Shown here piece by piece: positions 2,481-43,335 of a DNA stretch of 64,000 nucleotides (its first letter is position 1; each line of letters starts with the position of its first letter). The position numbers and the translations under genes are program-made. This stretch comes from Hormoscilla sp. (GTDB lineage Bacteria > Cyanobacteriota > Cyanobacteriia > Cyanobacteriales > Desertifilaceae): positions 61,192-125,191 of the forward strand of contig JBFRWI010000135.1 in the NCBI GenBank assembly GCA_051439505.1, read 5' to 3'. A model generated the notes under the pieces. The model saw nothing but the letters and a program-made list of their open reading frames with translations. It had not been told where the DNA came from and ran no database searches.

Positions 2481-2900
2481 TTAAAGAATCGTCAGATATG
2501 TTTGTGTCGGACTAATGGGTAACGGTTCTAACCTTTGGTTCTTTAAGTCCAGTTCTATTCCTAATGCTTCCAGGGGGATGACACCGAGTAATGGAGAACT
2601 CCCACCGGGGAGTTCTAAACATTCAAATGTCCCTTCTCGTGATAATAAGGAAATCTTCGCATCTTGAAATATCCTGGCTTTACCAATGCCACTTGCCGTT
2701 TCCACATCAACTTCTTTTAACAATTCCAGTCCTAAAGATGCGATCGCCTCTTTTGGCAAGCACAACGTGGTGGCACCTGTATCCACGAGCACATTCGAGA
2801 TCGTAATCGATCGGACTTCCTCTGGGCTTATCATATCTCTTGTTGCCAGAATTTGGTCAGCACGATTCGTGACCACTAGCGTTGTTATAATTCTACCCAT
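2481..2900 (-). CDS. Clan AA (retropepsin-like) aspartyl protease
   Basis: LVDTGAT and LLGVIPLEALG motifs. Confidence 0.85.
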   Translation of the reverse strand: MGRIITTLVVTNRADQILATRDMISPEEVRSITISNVLVDTGATTLCLPKEAIASLGLELLKEVDVETASGIGKARIFQDAKISLLSREGTFECLELPGGSSPLLGVIPLEALGIELDLKNQRLEPLPISPTQTYLTIL

Positions 2901-3105
2901 TTGCGCTATGCGGAGTTGATGACGTTTTTACTCCGACCTCCTCTAACTTGATTATAGCATAGAGATTCTGATTATGACGAATACCACTGGATCGCTTGAC
3001 AGGCATTAGTTGATAGTATATCATGTCTATCAAGCGATGGGAGGATACCCGCAGCACGAGAATCCAGTTGATTTGTAACTCTGGTAGTTGACAATGGGCG
3101 ATCGT

Positions 3106-3294
3106 CAATACTTCTCGGTTAACATCTTATTTGTCATTGCGAGGGGGGCGCACCATCCGACATTGTGGAGATCTCCGCGTAAGATCCCCCGAAGCAATCT
3201 CATGCGTTGTCGGGGAGATTGCTAGCCCTCCTGCGTCGGGCCGCTACGCTAACGGGGGGGGGATTGCTTCGTGCGGAGCAACGCTGCGCGACTC
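3106..3294 (+). repeat. TGTC-tagged REP-like/MITE element
   Basis: TGTCATTGCGAGGGGGG...CCCCCGAAGCAATCT followed by an inverted half; same family as 5517-5556, 6483-6720 and 36061-36650. Confidence 0.85.
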
Positions 3295-3297
3295 AAT

Positions 3298-3909
3298 TCA
3301 CAGAGTTACCGTGACTATATTGCTTGGGGTTCCTTCTCCGGCTTTATTAATGGCGATTACTTGGTAAATTAACTCTTTCCCCCGGGGTTGATTGACTAGA
3401 GCGATTTCTGACTCTATAGCAGTGGCCACATCTACCGGCGCGTCTTCGGATGCGGTAATGCGACGCTGCACTTTATATGCTTTTACGGGGCCTCCTTCTT
3501 TAGGGCCTTTCCAATCTAATGCTATCCAGCCCGGTCCTTGAGAGACTATTTCCAGAGAGCGTACTTGCCCGGGAGCCCCTTGGGCACTGGGACGCGATCG
3601 CCCTCCCCAGCCCAATAGTTCCAGCTTTTCATCGCTATAATTTACGGTGTTCTCGGCATAGCGCAATACCCTTTTGAGGTTATCTGTCAGGGTTTCAAAA
3701 GCGTCATTTTTAGTGATTGTTGCCTCTTTGGCGGCGGCGGTAGCAGCGATCATCGCGTTTTGGGTGGCGATCAGGTTGTTAAGGTTAGCTGTCAACTCTT
3801 CTGTTGTCAGTGGTGGTGAGGGATAGACAGTGGTGTTAGCCGTTAATCCGCCGATTACAGCTTGAGCGAGGGCAATAACTTCTGATTCAGATCTTGGAAA
3901 TTTAGCCAT
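3298..3909 (-). CDS. Helical N-terminal + fibronectin type III-like domain protein (paralog of 39241-39849)
   Basis: ATG at 3909 with AGGAAGAGG RBS; C-terminal PGQV..L, LDWK.P, YKVQ, Y.VIAINKAGEG.PSN pattern; no signal peptide. Confidence 0.85.
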   Translation of the reverse strand: MAKFPRSESEVIALAQAVIGGLTANTTVYPSPPLTTEELTANLNNLIATQNAMIAATAAAKEATITKNDAFETLTDNLKRVLRYAENTVNYSDEKLELLGWGGRSRPSAQGAPGQVRSLEIVSQGPGWIALDWKGPKEGGPVKAYKVQRRITASEDAPVDVATAIESEIALVNQPRGKELIYQVIAINKAGEGTPSNIVTVTL

Positions 3910-3943
3910 TTTTGCCTCTTCCTTTACTCCCAATAGGTTTACA

Positions 3944-4174
3944 TTGGCTTTGAGTAAGCTTACTTTGGCTTTGAGTAAGCTTACTTTGGCTTTGAGTAAG
4001 CTTACTTTGGCTTTGAGTAAGCTTACTTTGGCTTTGAGTAAGCTTACTTTGGCTTTGGGTAAGCTTACTTTGGCTTTGGGTAAGCTTACTTTGGCTTTGG
4101 GTAAGCTTACTTTGGCTTTGGGTAAGCTTACTTTGGCTTTGGGTAAGCTTACTTTGGCTTTGGGTAAGCTAGCA
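3944..4174. repeat. 21-bp tandem array, 11 units, TTGGCTTTG(A/G)GTAAGCTTACT
   Basis: 5 A-type units followed by 6 G-type units; A-type units contain the 12-bp palindrome AGTAAGCTTACT. Confidence 0.98.
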
Positions 4175-4367
4175 ATAGTTTATTGTAAGGCGTTGTCACA
4201 AGTCGTTGATAGTCATTTGCTGCCGAGCCCTGTAGGGGCTGAGCTTAGGCGCGTCAATTGTGACATAACTTGACAGATATCCTAGCAGTGATTTTTCCCT
4301 CACGGTATGCAACGCCGGGCACTTCGCGAGGTCTCCCCGTACCAACTGACCCATGACCACACTTTTT

Positions 4368-4396
4368 ATTGTAAGCCAACAATGGCTTATTGTCAA
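4368..4396 (-). promoter_or_regulatory. sigma70-like promoter facing the array and FN3 gene, with an overlapping palindrome
   Basis: Minus strand TTGACA-N17-TACAAT; inverted repeat TAAGCCA-N4-TGGCTTA spans the spacer. Confidence 0.65.
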
Positions 4397-4428
4397 GCTG
4401 TCGTGCTGTTGAAATAGCTGATGACCTG

Positions 4429-4468
4429 AGATTCCTCGCTGCTATCCCGCACTCGGAGCGAGGAATCT
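4429..4468. repeat. Inverted repeat (REP-like hairpin)
   Basis: AGATTCCTCGCT-N16-AGCGAGGAATCT, perfect 12-bp arms. Confidence 0.75.
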
Positions 4469-4615
4469 AGATTGAAATCGTCAAATATGGGCGATCGCCC
4501 CCAAACCCCGGCGACTGGGAGATCCCATGCACGGTGGACTACATGACCTGAAGCAATGGATTGTCACAGATAACTGCCAGTTGATTGCGATGTTGGGTAT
4601 GGGGCCTTGGCAAAA

Positions 4616-4767
4616 GGGTGTGGTCAAAAACAGTTGATCGTTCGGGCGGCCCTCCCAGTCGCCGGATCCCCCCAAACCCCCCTTAAAAAGGGGGGCTTTC
4701 GGAGCCCCCCCTTTCGGGAAGGGGGGGTTTGGGGGGGATCCTTTACAACAAATGCATGACCACACCC
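4616..4767. mobile_element. MITE family A (TIR GGGTGTGGTCA)
   Basis: GGGTGTGGTCA...TGACCACACCC with 9-bp TSD TTGGCAAAA. Confidence 0.9.
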
Positions 4768-5796: not shown

Positions 5797-6062
5797 CTAA
5801 AGGTTCTGATATACTTCATCATCATTACGCTTGCCTACCCTGAAAATTTCCACCTCACCTTCGTCAATTGTGTAAAGAATTCTAAACTCACCTTGGTCCG
5901 GTAACTCCCCTCGTAACCTTCTAATTTTTTACAATCTTGAGGCATCGGAGTTGCTTGAAGAGAAAAATTTTTTTTTGCCACCTGCTTAAACTGCTTAGGT
6001 TGTAACTTATACAAAGTTTTCTCAGCCGCTTTTGTCAGTCTGATAGCGTAACGTTCAGTCAT
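5797..6062 (-). pseudogene. RelE/ParE-family toxin, frameshifted
   Basis: ...KKLEGYEGSYR continues in another frame as DQGEFRILYTIDEGEVEIFRVGKRNDDEVYQNL*; the 266-nt span is not a multiple of 3. Confidence 0.85.
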
Positions 6063-6369
6063 TCATAATACTCTCCATCGTGAAGTCCGTGCCGTGCAAC
6101 TTGTTATAATTGGCAATTAAAGTCTCAGGGGTGACAAACTCACCATCATGTTCGGCTATAGCGCGACGCATGTTCTCTGATTCTATAGCATCTTCTAAAG
6201 CCTCAAGCCGCCGGAGTTCGGAATAGCTAACGATCGCCGCAACTGCCTGACCTTCTCGTTCTATCATAATCCGTTCCCCACTGTCACCCATCATACGGGT
6301 CAGCAGTTCGGCCAAATGGGCTTGCGCCTGCATTACATCTACTACAGTTGCCGTCGTTAACGGTTCCAT
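6055..6369 (-). CDS. Phd/YefM-family antitoxin
   Basis: GERIMIEREGQAVAAIVSYSEL pattern; overlaps the toxin start. Confidence 0.85.
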   Translation of the reverse strand: MEPLTTATVVDVMQAQAHLAELLTRMMGDSGERIMIEREGQAVAAIVSYSELRRLEALEDAIESENMRRAIAEHDGEFVTPETLIANYNKLHGTDFTMESIMND

Positions 6370-36008: not shown

Positions 36009-36060
36009 GGCTGTTCAGTTTGTCATTTCTTCGCTACACATATTTCTCACTCAGTATCTT

Positions 36061-36693
36061 TGTCATTGCGAGGGGGGACTCCGCGATCGACAAGCAGGTC
36101 AACTGAGTAATTCCCCCCGAAGCAATCTCCTCTGTGAGCACATTTGTCATTGCGAGGGGGGTTCCGACGCGATCGACTTACGGTCAATTGAGTCATTCCC
36201 CCCGAAGCAATCCCCTCACCAAGGCTACTTGTCATTGCGAGGGGGGTTCCGACGCGATCGACTTATGCTTCCTTGAGTAATTCCCCCCGAAGCAATCCCC
36301 TCACCAAGGCTACTTGTCATTAAGTTAATCACTACGTTTCCCCCTCGCAATGACAAGTATTGGGTCCACCAGTAGTCGTCTGCCCGACCCCGGAGGCCAT
36401 AGCAATTCCCGACCAAGCAGGAGATTGCTTCGGGGGGGAGATTGCTTCGTGCCTCGCAACGCTGCGCGACTCTATGAAAGCATAAGTTAATCACTACATT
36501 TCCCCCTCGCAATGACAAGTATTGGGTCCACCAGTAGTCGTCTGCCCGATCCCGGAGACCATAGCAATTCCCCACCAAGTAGGAGATTGCTTCGGGGGGT
36601 TAACCTATGAAAGCATAAGTTAATCACTACGTTTCCCCCTCGCAATGACAAGTATTGGGTCCACCAACAGGCGTCTGTCCGACCCCGGAGACC
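36061..36693. repeat. Cluster of TGTC-tagged palindromic repeats (3 forward + 3 reverse)
   Basis: Forward units start at 36061, 36145 and 36230 (84-85-bp period); reverse units end at 36355, 36517 and 36650, each followed by a shared linker. Confidence 0.93.
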
Positions 36694-38324: not shown

Positions 38325-38353
38325 TTGATATGAGTTTTTTCGCTCGATATAAA
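38325..38353 (+). promoter_or_regulatory. sigma70-like promoter at the head of the 21-nt array
   Basis: TTGATA-N17-TATAAA. Confidence 0.45.
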
Positions 38354-38354
38354 C

Positions 38355-39213
38355 CAGGGCATTCTCAGTCTCAACGTTTTCAATTCCAGTTTTAACGTTA
38401 ATATGGCCATTTTCAGCATTTAAGCAATCGGCTCTAACTTGCCAATCGCCAGTTAGAACGTTAAAATAGTCTGTGACAAGGTTCAAGTCGCCAGTCTTAA
38501 AGTGCCGATGACCGGTTACAACATGGGTATAGCCAGAATTTATGTCAAAATGGCCATTTTTAGCATTGAATCAGTCGGATCCAACGTAATAATAGCCAGT
38601 GCTAAGGCCAAAAATGCCATTTTTTGCATTAAGCAGTCGGCTCCAACTTGCAAATTGCCAGTTGGAACGTTAAAATAGTCTGTGACAAAGTTCCGATGGC
38701 CAGTTCCCAAGTGCCAATGACTGGCTCTAACATAAGGATAGTCAGAATAAAGGTCAAAATGGCCATTACCAGAATTTAAGCAGTCGGCTCCAACTTGCAA
38801 ATTGCCAGTTAGAACGTTAAAATAGTCTGTGACAAAGTTCCGATGGCCAGTTCCCAAGTGCCAATGACCGGCTCTAACATGGGGATATCCAGAATCAAGG
38901 TCAAAATGGCCATAACCAGAATTTAAGCAGTCGGTTCCAACTTGCAAATTGCCAGTTGGAACGTTAAAATAGTCTGTGACAAAGTTCAGATGGCCAGTCC
39001 CAAAGTGCCAATGACCGGCTCCAACATGGGGATAGCCAGGCTAAAGGTAAAAATGGCCATTTATTGTCTTAAATCAGTCGGATCTAACGTCAAAATGCCT
39101 AGTTTTAAGGGGGCAACTACAGTATTAACGTGAAAATAGCCAAATTTCATGTTAAGATAGTCAAGCATGACGCTAAAATAGTCAAGATCGACGGTTAAAT
39201 AACCAAAGCAGAG
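38355..39213. repeat. Degenerate 21-bp-period array (~41 units) with a 147-bp (7x21) higher-order repeat
   Basis: TTAAAATAGTCTGTGACAA recurs at 38461, 38670, 38817 and 38964; units align in a 21-nt register with two 1-nt slips. Confidence 0.92.
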
Positions 39214-39240
39214 ATTTATTTGTAAATAGGAGAAGAGACA

Positions 39241-39849
39241 ATGCCTCGTTTTCCGACACGAGAAGATGAAATAGCTTCTCTGGCCAACGACATCATCATT
39301 GGATTAGAAAATAACCCCAGTCTTTTGACCGCTCCCATCGTCGATATCCCTACCATGCGTGCCAGTTTAGAAAATTATCGCACGGCTAAAGTCAAAGTCA
39401 CCGCCGCCCAAGCTGCCGTAAAAGAAGCAGTTGAAGAGAAAGACGAATTATTGGCAGACTTGGTGGAAGAAATGAAACAAATCATCCGCCAAGCGGAAAA
39501 CGAAACCCAATATAACGATACCTCCTTAAAGAAAATTGGTTGGGGAGGGCGAACCCGTCGCACCAGCATCGAACCTCCCGGACAAGTGCGGAACCTGGAA
39601 GCACCTCGTCAAGGTGCGGGTTGGGTAGTTTTAGATTGGAAAACCCCCAGCGATGGAGGGAAAGTAGTCACCTACAAAGTGCAAATGTTCGACCGTGACA
39701 CTGACAGTTGGAAAGAGGTCACAAGCACCTTAAACACGGAAGCAACTCTGGTGGAACAAGAACGAACAAAAACTTTAGAATATCGCGTCATCGCCATCAA
39801 TAGAGCAGGTGAAGGAGCCCCCAGCAATACCGTATTAGTTAATTTGTAA
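39241..39849 (+). CDS. Helical N-terminal + fibronectin type III-like domain protein (paralog of 3298-3909)
   Basis: AGGAG RBS; shares GWGGR, PGQVR.LE, QG.GW..LDWK.P and VIAIN.AGEG.PSN with the paralog. Confidence 0.87.
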   Translation: MPRFPTREDEIASLANDIIIGLENNPSLLTAPIVDIPTMRASLENYRTAKVKVTAAQAAVKEAVEEKDELLADLVEEMKQIIRQAENETQYNDTSLKKIGWGGRTRRTSIEPPGQVRNLEAPRQGAGWVVLDWKTPSDGGKVVTYKVQMFDRDTDSWKEVTSTLNTEATLVEQERTKTLEYRVIAINRAGEGAPSNTVLVNL

Positions 39850-41514: not shown

Positions 41515-43335
41515 ATGAAATATAGAACTAGACGCCTTCGACAGCAACAATTAAGGGATCAATACGTCCTATCCCGCCGCACCATGCTAGCACTGATGGG
41601 TTTTGCCTGCGCCCCCGGTCTGGAAGCTTTGCTGGACCATAGCAATGAAACCTCAAGGCCCACTGTACCCAGAAATCCCCAGATCCCATCCTTACCCCAA
41701 GACGATCGACCTTTAGTCCGACGGAGACGCCAACAGCAGTTGCAACAGGCACGGGAAGAATATCAGTTAGCGACGAGGCTGCCAAATGCTGTCCGCGTAG
41801 CTGATGTACCTCCCCAAGAAGCCTTTTCAGAAAATTATCAAGCTAACAGAGAAAGCTTGACGTCCCAACTTGCCGCAAATCAAGAGGCATTTCTAGCAAA
41901 TCCCGTGCCTTTTCTCAGTCTGGAGGACTACGCCGCTGTCTTTCCCGTCCTGCCCCTACCAGATATTGCCACTAGCTTCCGCCAGGATGCTACCTTTGCC
42001 CAGCAGCGGCTTTCTGGCACCGATCCCATGGAACTAACCAATGTTTTGGCACTCAATTACCGCCTCCGGGACAAAATGGCCATCACAAATGACATTTTTC
42101 GGGCCGTGGTTGGTGATGATGTTGGGGAAACCCTGAATAGCGCTATGCGATCGGGATCTCTGTTTGTTACCGATTATGGGGTACTAGATAATGTTACCCC
42201 CCAAGCAGGCAGATTTATTACTAGCCCCATCTGCCTCTATTTTGCCGATCGCCGCAACCCCCGATCGCCCTTAATTCCCATTGCGATCCAGTTGGGACAG
42301 CTGCCAGGAGAGAGTTTACTCTGCACGCCTCTAGATGGGGTAGACTGGACCTTAGCTAAGAGCGTCGCTCAGATGGCTGAGTTCACCGTCTTTGAACTCA
42401 TACGCCACCTGGGTCAAACTCATTATGCTTTAGAACCGATCGCACTGGCAACTGCACGGGAACTTGCCCAAAACCATCCCTTGTACGTGCTTTTGCAGCC
42501 CCATTTTGATTTTACGATGGCGATCAATGCCTTTAGCGATCAAGTACTCATCAATCCCGGGGGGTTCGTAAACGTAATTTTTCCAGGGATTTTGGAAAGT
42601 TCCCTCAGCCTTACAAATCAAGGTGTTACCGAACAGTTTAATAACTTCAGTGACTTTGCCTTCCCCAACAATTTGCGCAAGCGCGGTGTCACCGATGGCG
42701 AACAGTTACCTAACTTCCCCTATCGTGACGACGGGTTGCTGATCTGGCAAGCTCTGCGGGACTATGTTACTCAATATGTCAGGATTTACTATCAAACCCC
42801 AAGAGATGTCCGTCAGGATGTCGAACTGCAAAATTGGCTGCAAGCATTACGAACGCCCGTTAGCGATGGCGGTTTGGGAGTAGTTTCCTTGCCAGAACGT
42901 CTGACTAATCGCAACCAGTTGGTCGATCTGCTGACACAAATCATTTTTACTGCTGGTCCCCAACACTCAGCCATTGCCTGGCTTCAATACGATTACTCAG
43001 CCTTTATTCCCAACATGCCTGGAGCCATCTATCAGCCGATCCCTAACGTCAAAGGAACAGTTAGGGAAGCAGATCTCAGTGGGTTTCTCCCTAATACAGA
43101 ATTAACCTTTGCTCAGCTGACATTAATGACACAAATCGGCACCAAGATCGATCCCAAGGCATTTACAAATTTTGGGCGTAGCAGTTTCCAAGACCCCCGC
43201 GCTATTCGGGTGCTGAGAATGCTGCAACATCGTCTCGACAAGATAGAAGAGGCGATCGAACAACGCAATCAACGCCGAGGGGAATGCTACATCGGATTTC
43301 TACCCTCTCGCATGGCGAACAGCACTAGTGGATAG
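41515..43335 (+). CDS. Lipoxygenase-family protein with putative Tat signal
   Basis: FAQQRLSG, IAIQL, W.LAK, ELIRHLGQTH, PYRDDG and TAGPQH motifs; N-terminal SRRTML. Confidence 0.9.
   Translation: MKYRTRRLRQQQLRDQYVLSRRTMLALMGFACAPGLEALLDHSNETSRPTVPRNPQIPSLPQDDRPLVRRRRQQQLQQAREEYQLATRLPNAVRVADVPPQEAFSENYQANRESLTSQLAANQEAFLANPVPFLSLEDYAAVFPVLPLPDIATSFRQDATFAQQRLSGTDPMELTNVLALNYRLRDKMAITNDIFRAVVGDDVGETLNSAMRSGSLFVTDYGVLDNVTPQAGRFITSPICLYFADRRNPRSPLIPIAIQLGQLPGESLLCTPLDGVDWTLAKSVAQMAEFTVFELIRHLGQTHYALEPIALATARELAQNHPLYVLLQPHFDFTMAINAFSDQVLINPGGFVNVIFPGILESSLSLTNQGVTEQFNNFSDFAFPNNLRKRGVTDGEQLPNFPYRDDGLLIWQALRDYVTQYVRIYYQTPRDVRQDVELQNWLQALRTPVSDGGLGVVSLPERLTNRNQLVDLLTQIIFTAGPQHSAIAWLQYDYSAFIPNMPGAIYQPIPNVKGTVREADLSGFLPNTELTFAQLTLMTQIGTKIDPKAFTNFGRSSFQDPRAIRVLRMLQHRLDKIEEAIEQRNQRRGECYIGFLPSRMANSTSG

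Follow-up and report, generated by a model that had tools for sequence, protein, structure and literature searches.

In eight named phyla, tandem arrays with a 21-bp period lie upstream of genes for a small protein with a helical N-terminal domain and a C-terminal FN3 domain, and residue 6 of this protein covaries with the letters of the repeat. On balance, we favor a two-part module in which an array of palindromes is read, as duplex DNA, by the helical-FN3 protein acting as a two-fold dimer, with residue 6 at base pairs 3-4 and 13-14 of each unit; that the protein binds the array at all we regard as distinctly likely. An array-reader module with a one-residue code is apparently undescribed, as no account of a palindrome array paired with a helical-FN3 protein was found in a body of literature that for the most part excluded subscription journals and bioRxiv supplements.

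The window, a 64,000-nucleotide stretch of DNA from Hormoscilla sp., holds two such loci, with the following features.

3298..3909, minus strand: gene P0001, 203 amino acids, with an N-terminal arm (F4-P5-R6), a helical hairpin containing a 53-residue helix, and a C-terminal FN3 domain
3892..3894, minus strand: codon 6 (Arg) of P0001, the family's candidate specificity residue
3925..4176, minus strand: main array of locus 1, 12 in-register units, each a 16-bp imperfect palindrome plus a 5-bp spacer
4179..4364, no strand: 186-bp interruption, made of a 175-bp insert and one copy of an 11-bp direct repeat
4363..4404, minus strand: two displaced array units, jointly spelling a TTGACA-17-TACAAT promoter-like site (4396-4368)
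about 38368..39207, plus strand: array of locus 2, made of 40 degenerate units and including a 147-bp (7x21) block present about three times
39241..39849, plus strand: paralog P0002, 202 amino acids, with Thr at position 6

The main array at locus 1 consists of a divergent first unit, 10 near-identical core units and a degenerate last unit that extends into the ribosome-binding region of P0001. A preliminary description of this DNA had counted 11 near-perfect 21-bp units that end 35 nt before the ATG of a 203-residue protein without a signal sequence, helical in its N-terminal half and FN3-like in its C-terminal half, and had suggested a structure prediction. All of these points held up: TRF reports a period of 21 with 11.0 copies and 99% matches (3939-4170), the final full unit stops 35 nt 5' of the ATG at 3909, Pfam fn3 covers residues 115-201 (E 3e-6), the N-terminus as read from the sequence has no hydrophobic leader, and the AlphaFold model (pLDDT 92) has helices at residues 8-24, 36-88 and 93-97, with FN3 strands after them. 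Near-perfect repeat identity is atypical for the family: mean unit identity at locus 1 is 0.97, ranking second among 61 arrays whose median is 0.62.

A TTGACA-N17-TACAAT promoter had also been described as pointing into the array. The site is present on the minus strand (11/12 matches; the sole site in 3000-4700, a region that when shuffled yields 1.8 sites at the scan's looser threshold), but it is formed by the first two units of the locus 1 array, whose right arms supply the hexamers and which an insertion has split off from the remainder. The 11-bp direct repeat (4189-4179 and 4375-4365) brackets the insert, pieces of which match 28 places on 26 contigs. With the 186 bp removed, the two displaced units join the register of the other twelve, and the uninterrupted unit order is present in the Hormoscilla locus L003. 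The promoter-like site is built from units 1 and 2 at locus 1 and in Hormoscilla, falls within the arrays as called at L002-L004 and immediately before the one at L001, and occurs with at least 10/12 matches at 9 of 61 array loci. There is no family-wide sigma-70 signal, the ratios of sense to antisense being 27:22 in the 5' flank (n=75), 27:27 in the arrays (n=88) and 22:24 in the 3' flank (n=62); strong promoter scores inside arrays number 8 in sense and 3 in antisense. The site may be functional at locus 1, but it is not a family trait. A separate upstream promoter is not supported, given that the hexamers belong to array units and that sense and antisense score alike across the family.

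At locus 2, the preliminary description had proposed the same order of elements (38325-39849), and this was borne out for the array and the paralog, but not shown for the promoter. P0002 is 42% identical to P0001, and identity within the array at lags of 21, 42 and 63 is 0.48, versus 0.26 +/- 0.009 in 1000 shuffles; the promoter scan of the locus found only weak sites within the array or gene, and none at 38325. The 147-bp (7x21) super-repeat occupies 38629-39061 in 2.9 copies, starting after a one-base slip near 38640.

To place the two loci in a family, we fetched 77 loci from species genomes, drawn from the best 80 of 374 matches, and a further 79 from metagenomes, drawn from the best 80 of 498, a choice that leans the set toward close homologs. 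Among the 174 distinct proteins, 141 had sufficient upstream DNA, and 88 of these 141 genes have a 21-periodic array within 900 nt upstream, compared with 13 of 140 downstream (a count that leaves out stretches preceding a paralog) and 3 of 87 control windows. At the median, an array comprises 11.7 units and stops 69 nt 5' of the ATG. In the species-genome set, mean identity at lag 21 is 0.40 upstream (73 loci) versus 0.28 downstream (68 loci), on a background of 0.26. Array and gene are thus linked across the family, and the proposal that the array is a functional partner rather than incidental slippage is sustained by the comparison of homologs and their upstream periodicity that the preliminary description had suggested.

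An array within 900 nt upstream is absent in the other 53 genes, and 17 of the 49 examined genes of this kind carry a downstream array, 9 of these preceding a second paralog. Within the source genome, the paralog on contig C198 is preceded, at a distance of about 340 nt, by a short array that the contig end truncates, and the paralogs on C77 and C227 have no array in 1.2 kb. The C77 gene (L084; G000:C77:19586-20274, minus strand) is a K6 paralog disrupted close to codon 29, where it has a stop and an insertion of about 100 bp that contains heptamer repeats. The closest named homologs, among the matches listed, are from Hormoscilla and Okeania and suggest a filamentous cyanobacterial host; no family member was found in 300 other genomes sampled from the host's phylum. 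A search of 1.84 billion proteins was swamped by multi-FN3 proteins, so that its reach ended short of distant subfamilies. One protein, P0272 (293 amino acids), has an N-domain profile score above that of every 202-residue member and possibly contains a duplicated N-domain.

The surroundings of these genes bear on what the module might do. Clustering of neighbors found no recurrent partner gene. The nearest neighbor is a polysaccharide-synthesis gene at 10 of 77 loci, mostly in Planctomycetota (L006, L008, L014, L022, L025, L032, L037, L055, L068 and L077), and other loci adjoin restriction, PIN, integrase, AbiJ or housekeeping genes. In the partition systems TubR-tubC and ParR-parC, tandem sites are covered by a small dimeric protein whose gene lies next to them and is usually under its control. 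A credible, though unlikely, alternative is built on this likeness: it shares the binding step with the explanation that we favor and differs in role alone, the tract being a centromere-like or anchoring site and the protein an adaptor that uses its FN3 domain to recruit a motor, membrane anchor or defense effector of the host encoded elsewhere. Centromere-binding proteins, according to the available portion of PMC6009700, sit on iterons next to their own gene, and here too the tandem sites adjoin the gene for a candidate binding protein, a resemblance in layout only. The strongly conserved surface-type residues of the FN3 domain and the restriction, PIN and AbiJ neighbors at some loci would suit such an adaptor. 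Nonetheless, no ParA-, ParM- or TubZ-type family is found among the 117 nearest neighbors of the 77 loci, no partner gene is conserved, PADLOC has no match for P0001, P0002 or P0013, and the gene has no match in the 72,556 plasmids or 50,697 phages searched (viral contigs gave one full-length match). The 21-bp palindromic period and the FN3 domain also set the module apart from TubR-tubC and ParR-parC, as does an N-domain with no clear wHTH or RHH match (best Z 6.1).

The arrays form a palindromic lattice. Their sequence varies widely from one to another, and the best dyad of the unit, an imperfect 16-bp palindrome plus a 5-bp spacer, falls in a common 16-bp register in 76 of 88 arrays and in another register in 12, locus 2 included. 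The highest mutual information lies between mirror positions 3/14 and 4/13 (563 units from 49 of 61 arrays, 12 being dropped for another or unclear register).

Such symmetry could also belong to RNA. The array might be transcribed as a leader that folds back or pairs with an antisense transcript, the dimer reading duplex RNA to control translation or to form an RNP. The array does lie on the 5' side of the gene and often reaches the ribosome-binding site, an array that is symmetric can pair with itself in any register, and the residue-base covariation described below is silent on DNA versus RNA. Even so, we consider this unlikely, as the arrays give no signal of RNA structure: units show no within-unit pairing covariation (25 of 49 arrays above the between-unit shuffle), G-T mismatches are not in excess of A-C (277 versus 405 at pairs 1-6, and 365 versus 470 in a second count), keeping the units in their native order gives no better folding than shuffling them (mean z -0.2), neither strand is favored in folding (sense lower in energy in 25 of 50 arrays), and Rfam has no match at gathering score. 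The covariation, G-U and folding tests lend no support to either a hairpin per unit or a long fold-back, and the repetitive leader RNA entertained in the preliminary description is not supported as a structured RNA. Furthermore, a period of 21 is closer to two turns of B-DNA than to two turns of A-RNA.

An indication that the array is read by the protein encoded beside it comes from residue 6, which follows an invariant FP. This residue is the best predictor of half-site positions 2-5, with an R2 of 0.54 at position 4 (88 arrays). In the code table of 76 in-register arrays (12 of the 88, locus 2 among them, being left out for another dyad register), comparison of residue 6 with base pairs 3-4/13-14 pairs Lys or Arg with G in 47 of 51 cases and other residues with non-G in 24 of 25. 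Resolved further, R6 goes with TG in 22 of 24, K6 with AG or GG in 23 of 27, I6 with T at base pair 4 in 11 of 12, and the remaining residues with non-G in 13 of 13. At locus 2, outside the table, the units beside the T6 protein have, by eye, TT around an AACGTT center, matching the code.

Shared ancestry was considered with a quick maximum-likelihood tree from which the N-terminal arm, residue 6 included, was excluded. Residue 6 changes 31 times on this tree and base class 29 times; for basic versus non-basic residues and G4, eight independent pairs on well-supported branches gave about seven concordant changes and none opposite (p=0.016), and the finer distinctions of R versus K (3:0 of 4 pairs, p=0.25) and of I (4:0 of 4, p=0.125) are not significant on the tree. 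The identity-stratified score is 0.60 for residue 6 and 0.22 for residue 7, the next best, compared with a mean of 0.02 (sd 0.07) over 131 columns. GC content differs little across residue classes (0.48-0.54). Residue and base thus covary, and with residue 6 changing in step with the repeat letters, the protein probably acts as a rod-shaped dimer that binds the array beside its gene.

Nine loci have the order gene-array-gene (L092, L108, L109, L110, L130, L131, L133, L156 and L157), and in these the intervening array fits the downstream gene in 9 of 9 and the upstream gene in 2 of 9; as the downstream genes are already among the 76 rows, the upstream mismatch alone is new information. The upstream paralog (FPKKE/FPKSx) has K6 in all nine, regardless of the array, and is possibly an accessory or heterodimer subunit.

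Exceptions to the code are a cable-bacteria clade (K with TT, 4 of the 27 rows), L019, L163 and locus 1, which is one of the 2 in 24 that break the R-TG rule. The ten core units of locus 1 keep G4/C13 and have lost T3/A14, which are present in most units of the Hormoscilla arrays and of two sister arrays in the source genome (C2 and C147). Locus 1 is a recently expanded, partly off-code variant: its variant letters, taken with its high unit identity, look like the product of recent slippage expansion.

Could array and gene 5' end simply travel together by recombination, the array being a selfish minisatellite or a host-factor site that the protein does not read? The source genome has 63 21-periodic regions of several families, and a blast search with the locus 1 array, itself freshly amplified, matches six other contigs, where sister arrays stand without the gene (those on C2, C147 and C185 have no paralog nearby); 21-bp arrays are also common in cyanobacteria where the helical-FN3 gene was not found. 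Given this abundance of other families, the protein cannot be credited with all 21-bp repeats. For the arrays beside the gene, however, co-travel is decidedly improbable. Their position is polar and holds across phyla, and the array is tracked by codon 6 alone (codon 7 weakly) and not by the bases lying between the two: scores stay at or below 0.09 both in the 30 nt 5' of the ATG and at wobble positions other than those of codons 6-7. The residue 6 signal is therefore not linkage of the gene's 5' end, and hitch-hiking is not supported. Likewise, the three-unit locus 1 pattern occurs 28 times per strand in the source genome and in 2 of 300 other genomes, on one strand only in each. A loose ACGT lattice pattern matches 36 of 301 genomes with its reversed control matching equally often, which makes that co-occurrence test uninformative.

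Translation of the array, either into a peptide of 7-residue repeats or as an extension of the protein's N-terminus, is scarcely credible and was rejected: one locus 1 frame is open from 4176 into the ATG and each frame taken singly is open in 10-14 of 49 arrays, but the open stretch has no ATG or GTG start, stop codons occur in all six frames of the arrays at a rate of 2.7-6.4%, the synonymous share of single-base differences is neutral at 0.24-0.30 (49 arrays), and all three frames occur relative to the ATG. Non-coding arrays with no RNA-structure signal point to double-stranded DNA. As the symmetry is kept in the consensus rather than in each unit, the selector would be a two-fold symmetric protein on duplex DNA. 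Of the options raised in the preliminary description, a phased DNA-binding platform therefore fits best, in light of the palindromic register, the non-coding state, the lack of RNA signal and the residue-base covariation, with binding itself a probable step read from these sequences.

The predicted structure is compatible with such a selector. A two-copy prediction for P0001 gave an antiparallel coiled-coil dimer with a score of 0.70, versus 0.00 for the best of 3 controls; among solved pairs 20 of 30 attain the score mark, and among single chains 1 of 23, figures that are only rough for the alignment used. Dimer contacts agree by at least 68% between runs, with pLDDT of at least 85, and P0001 is accordingly predicted to be an antiparallel coiled-coil homodimer. 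The predicted contacts include 46-70, 60-60, 74-11 and 81-18, and their list places the dyad near residue 58 and packs helix 1 on residues 74-82 of the partner. Arithmetic on the contact list, made without coordinates, puts residue 6 near residues 67-70 of the partner (K67 is invariant) and some 15 A off the dyad; the two arms would then be separated by about 30 A (9 bp), equal to the spacing of base pairs 4 and 13, and the 53-residue helix would measure about 80 A, compared with 71 A for 21 bp.

The predicted N-domain is a helical hairpin with a long helix and no strands. It has no Foldseek match at E<=0.001 and a best VIA Z of 6.1, ordinary for helical hairpins; the lack of a solved-fold match does not show a new fold. 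Full-length fold searches returned FN3 matches only, and the ESM Atlas unnamed clusters only. By sequence, 53 N-domains weakly match 35 Pfam families (best E 0.0018), with no HU among the 25 listed. The search for known effector families in P0001 gave Pfam fn3 only and no NCBIfam match at cut-off, weak matches to the PQLLE family and DRA0282 lying far below it. Points against the binding model include the acidity of the family (median net charge -7), the lack of a match to solved DNA-binding folds, the departures of locus 1 and the cable-bacteria clade from the code, the 53 genes that lack an upstream array, and the many 21-bp arrays in cyanobacteria where the gene was not found. Conserved basic residues are R3, K67, K79, R83 and R104, with several more in FN3.

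We propose that the non-coding 16-bp palindromes placed every 21 bp directly upstream of the helical-FN3 gene are the target of its product. One coiled-coil dimer would occupy each palindrome, its two N-terminal arms, carrying residue 6, likely reading base pairs 3-4 and 13-14. As the rod (about 53 residues and 80 A) is roughly two DNA turns long, dimers would tile one face of the helix and build a phased nucleoprotein tract, about 12 units long, that leaves the FN3 domains exposed. Least certain are the final steps, in which the tract would cover the gene's own 5' region and limit its expression, and the gene-less sister arrays would offer the protein additional places to land, marking or stiffening the chromosome there. 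Self-limitation combined with chromosome marking is the most likely role, and the least certain part of the model; autoregulation gains no support from the sigma-70 comparison, which gave no family-wide signal. Going further, one may tentatively imagine a new class of DNA-coating protein, a coiled-coil ruler on two-turn palindrome lattices that is retargeted by one N-terminal residue, displays FN3 domains and seeds satellite-like arrays that organize or mark the chromosome, although we would put this somewhat below an even chance.

Fixed-length bacterial repeats have been described by Subirana and Messeguer, mainly in Bacillus; the available part of PMC8161180 presents them as non-coding, with a constant length of 20-21 nt and variable sequence, notes the correspondence to two helix turns and proposes that an unknown protein polymerizes on the repeats. 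The arrays studied here share with them a constant 20-21-nt period with letters that differ between families, the lack of protein coding, and several genome-specific families of dispersed copies. Unlike that description, as far as the available text goes, our arrays come with a partner gene, a palindromic lattice and a recognition code. The many cyanobacterial 21-mers where the gene was not found imply that the module explains only part of this class. If binding is true, part of a repeat class that lacks an explanation would for the first time have a named partner, the helical-FN3 protein, and the published idea of a protein polymerizing on repeats would become testable with one small soluble protein. 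The module would also represent a DNA-reading architecture without a clear solved-structure match in our searches, its one-residue code visible in natural variation, and the compact pair of array and protein could display fused domains on DNA at 7-nm spacing.

Two other systems resemble the module in part. HU-HIG proteins, which are Ig-fused HU proteins, combine a DNA-associated N-domain with an Ig-like fold, as is proposed for the helical-FN3 family, and likewise show patchy lineage expansions and occur in tandem pairs with no conserved operon, a likeness again of layout only; they are judged unlikely to be sequence-specific, and the available text on them mentions no repeat array (PMC5499826). 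The helical-FN3 family differs in its residue-base code and in an N-domain predicted as a coiled-coil hairpin, with no HU family among the Pfam matches listed. VIPR, a repeat-RNA-guided silencing system whose arrays act as guide RNAs on phages, also pairs a short-period array with one small gene and has stand-alone arrays, to judge from the accessible portion of its description (10.64898/2026.10.15.759431). The units here differ from those of VIPR, as described there, in being palindromic and at times identical, with no RNA signal and with the gene not found in the phage collection. Compared with VIPR, CRISPR and TIGR, P0001 contains no known effector family, and the units at locus 1 are near-identical.

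Several further repeats in the source genome (G000) deserve mention. Gene-less arrays with ACGT-centered dyads occur on C53, C66, C75, C92, C93, C148, C151, C157, C227 (6.1k) and C228 (26k); an array on C100 (59k) resembles that of C198, and one on C228 (89k) resembles the locus 2 array. Two more very homogeneous 21-bp families are present at 10 or more sites each, one on C9, C38, C42, C54, C85 and C94 and the other on C26, C63, C102, C125 and C207, among others. Just 3' of P0001, window positions 3100-3297 hold a repeated element found at about 205 places on 105 contigs, and an 85-bp tandem at 36060-36321 resembles it by eye. Genes near the two loci include a lipoxygenase (41515-43335, plus strand), a stand-alone aspartyl protease (2481-2900, minus strand) and a Phd/YefM antitoxin (6055-6369, minus strand).
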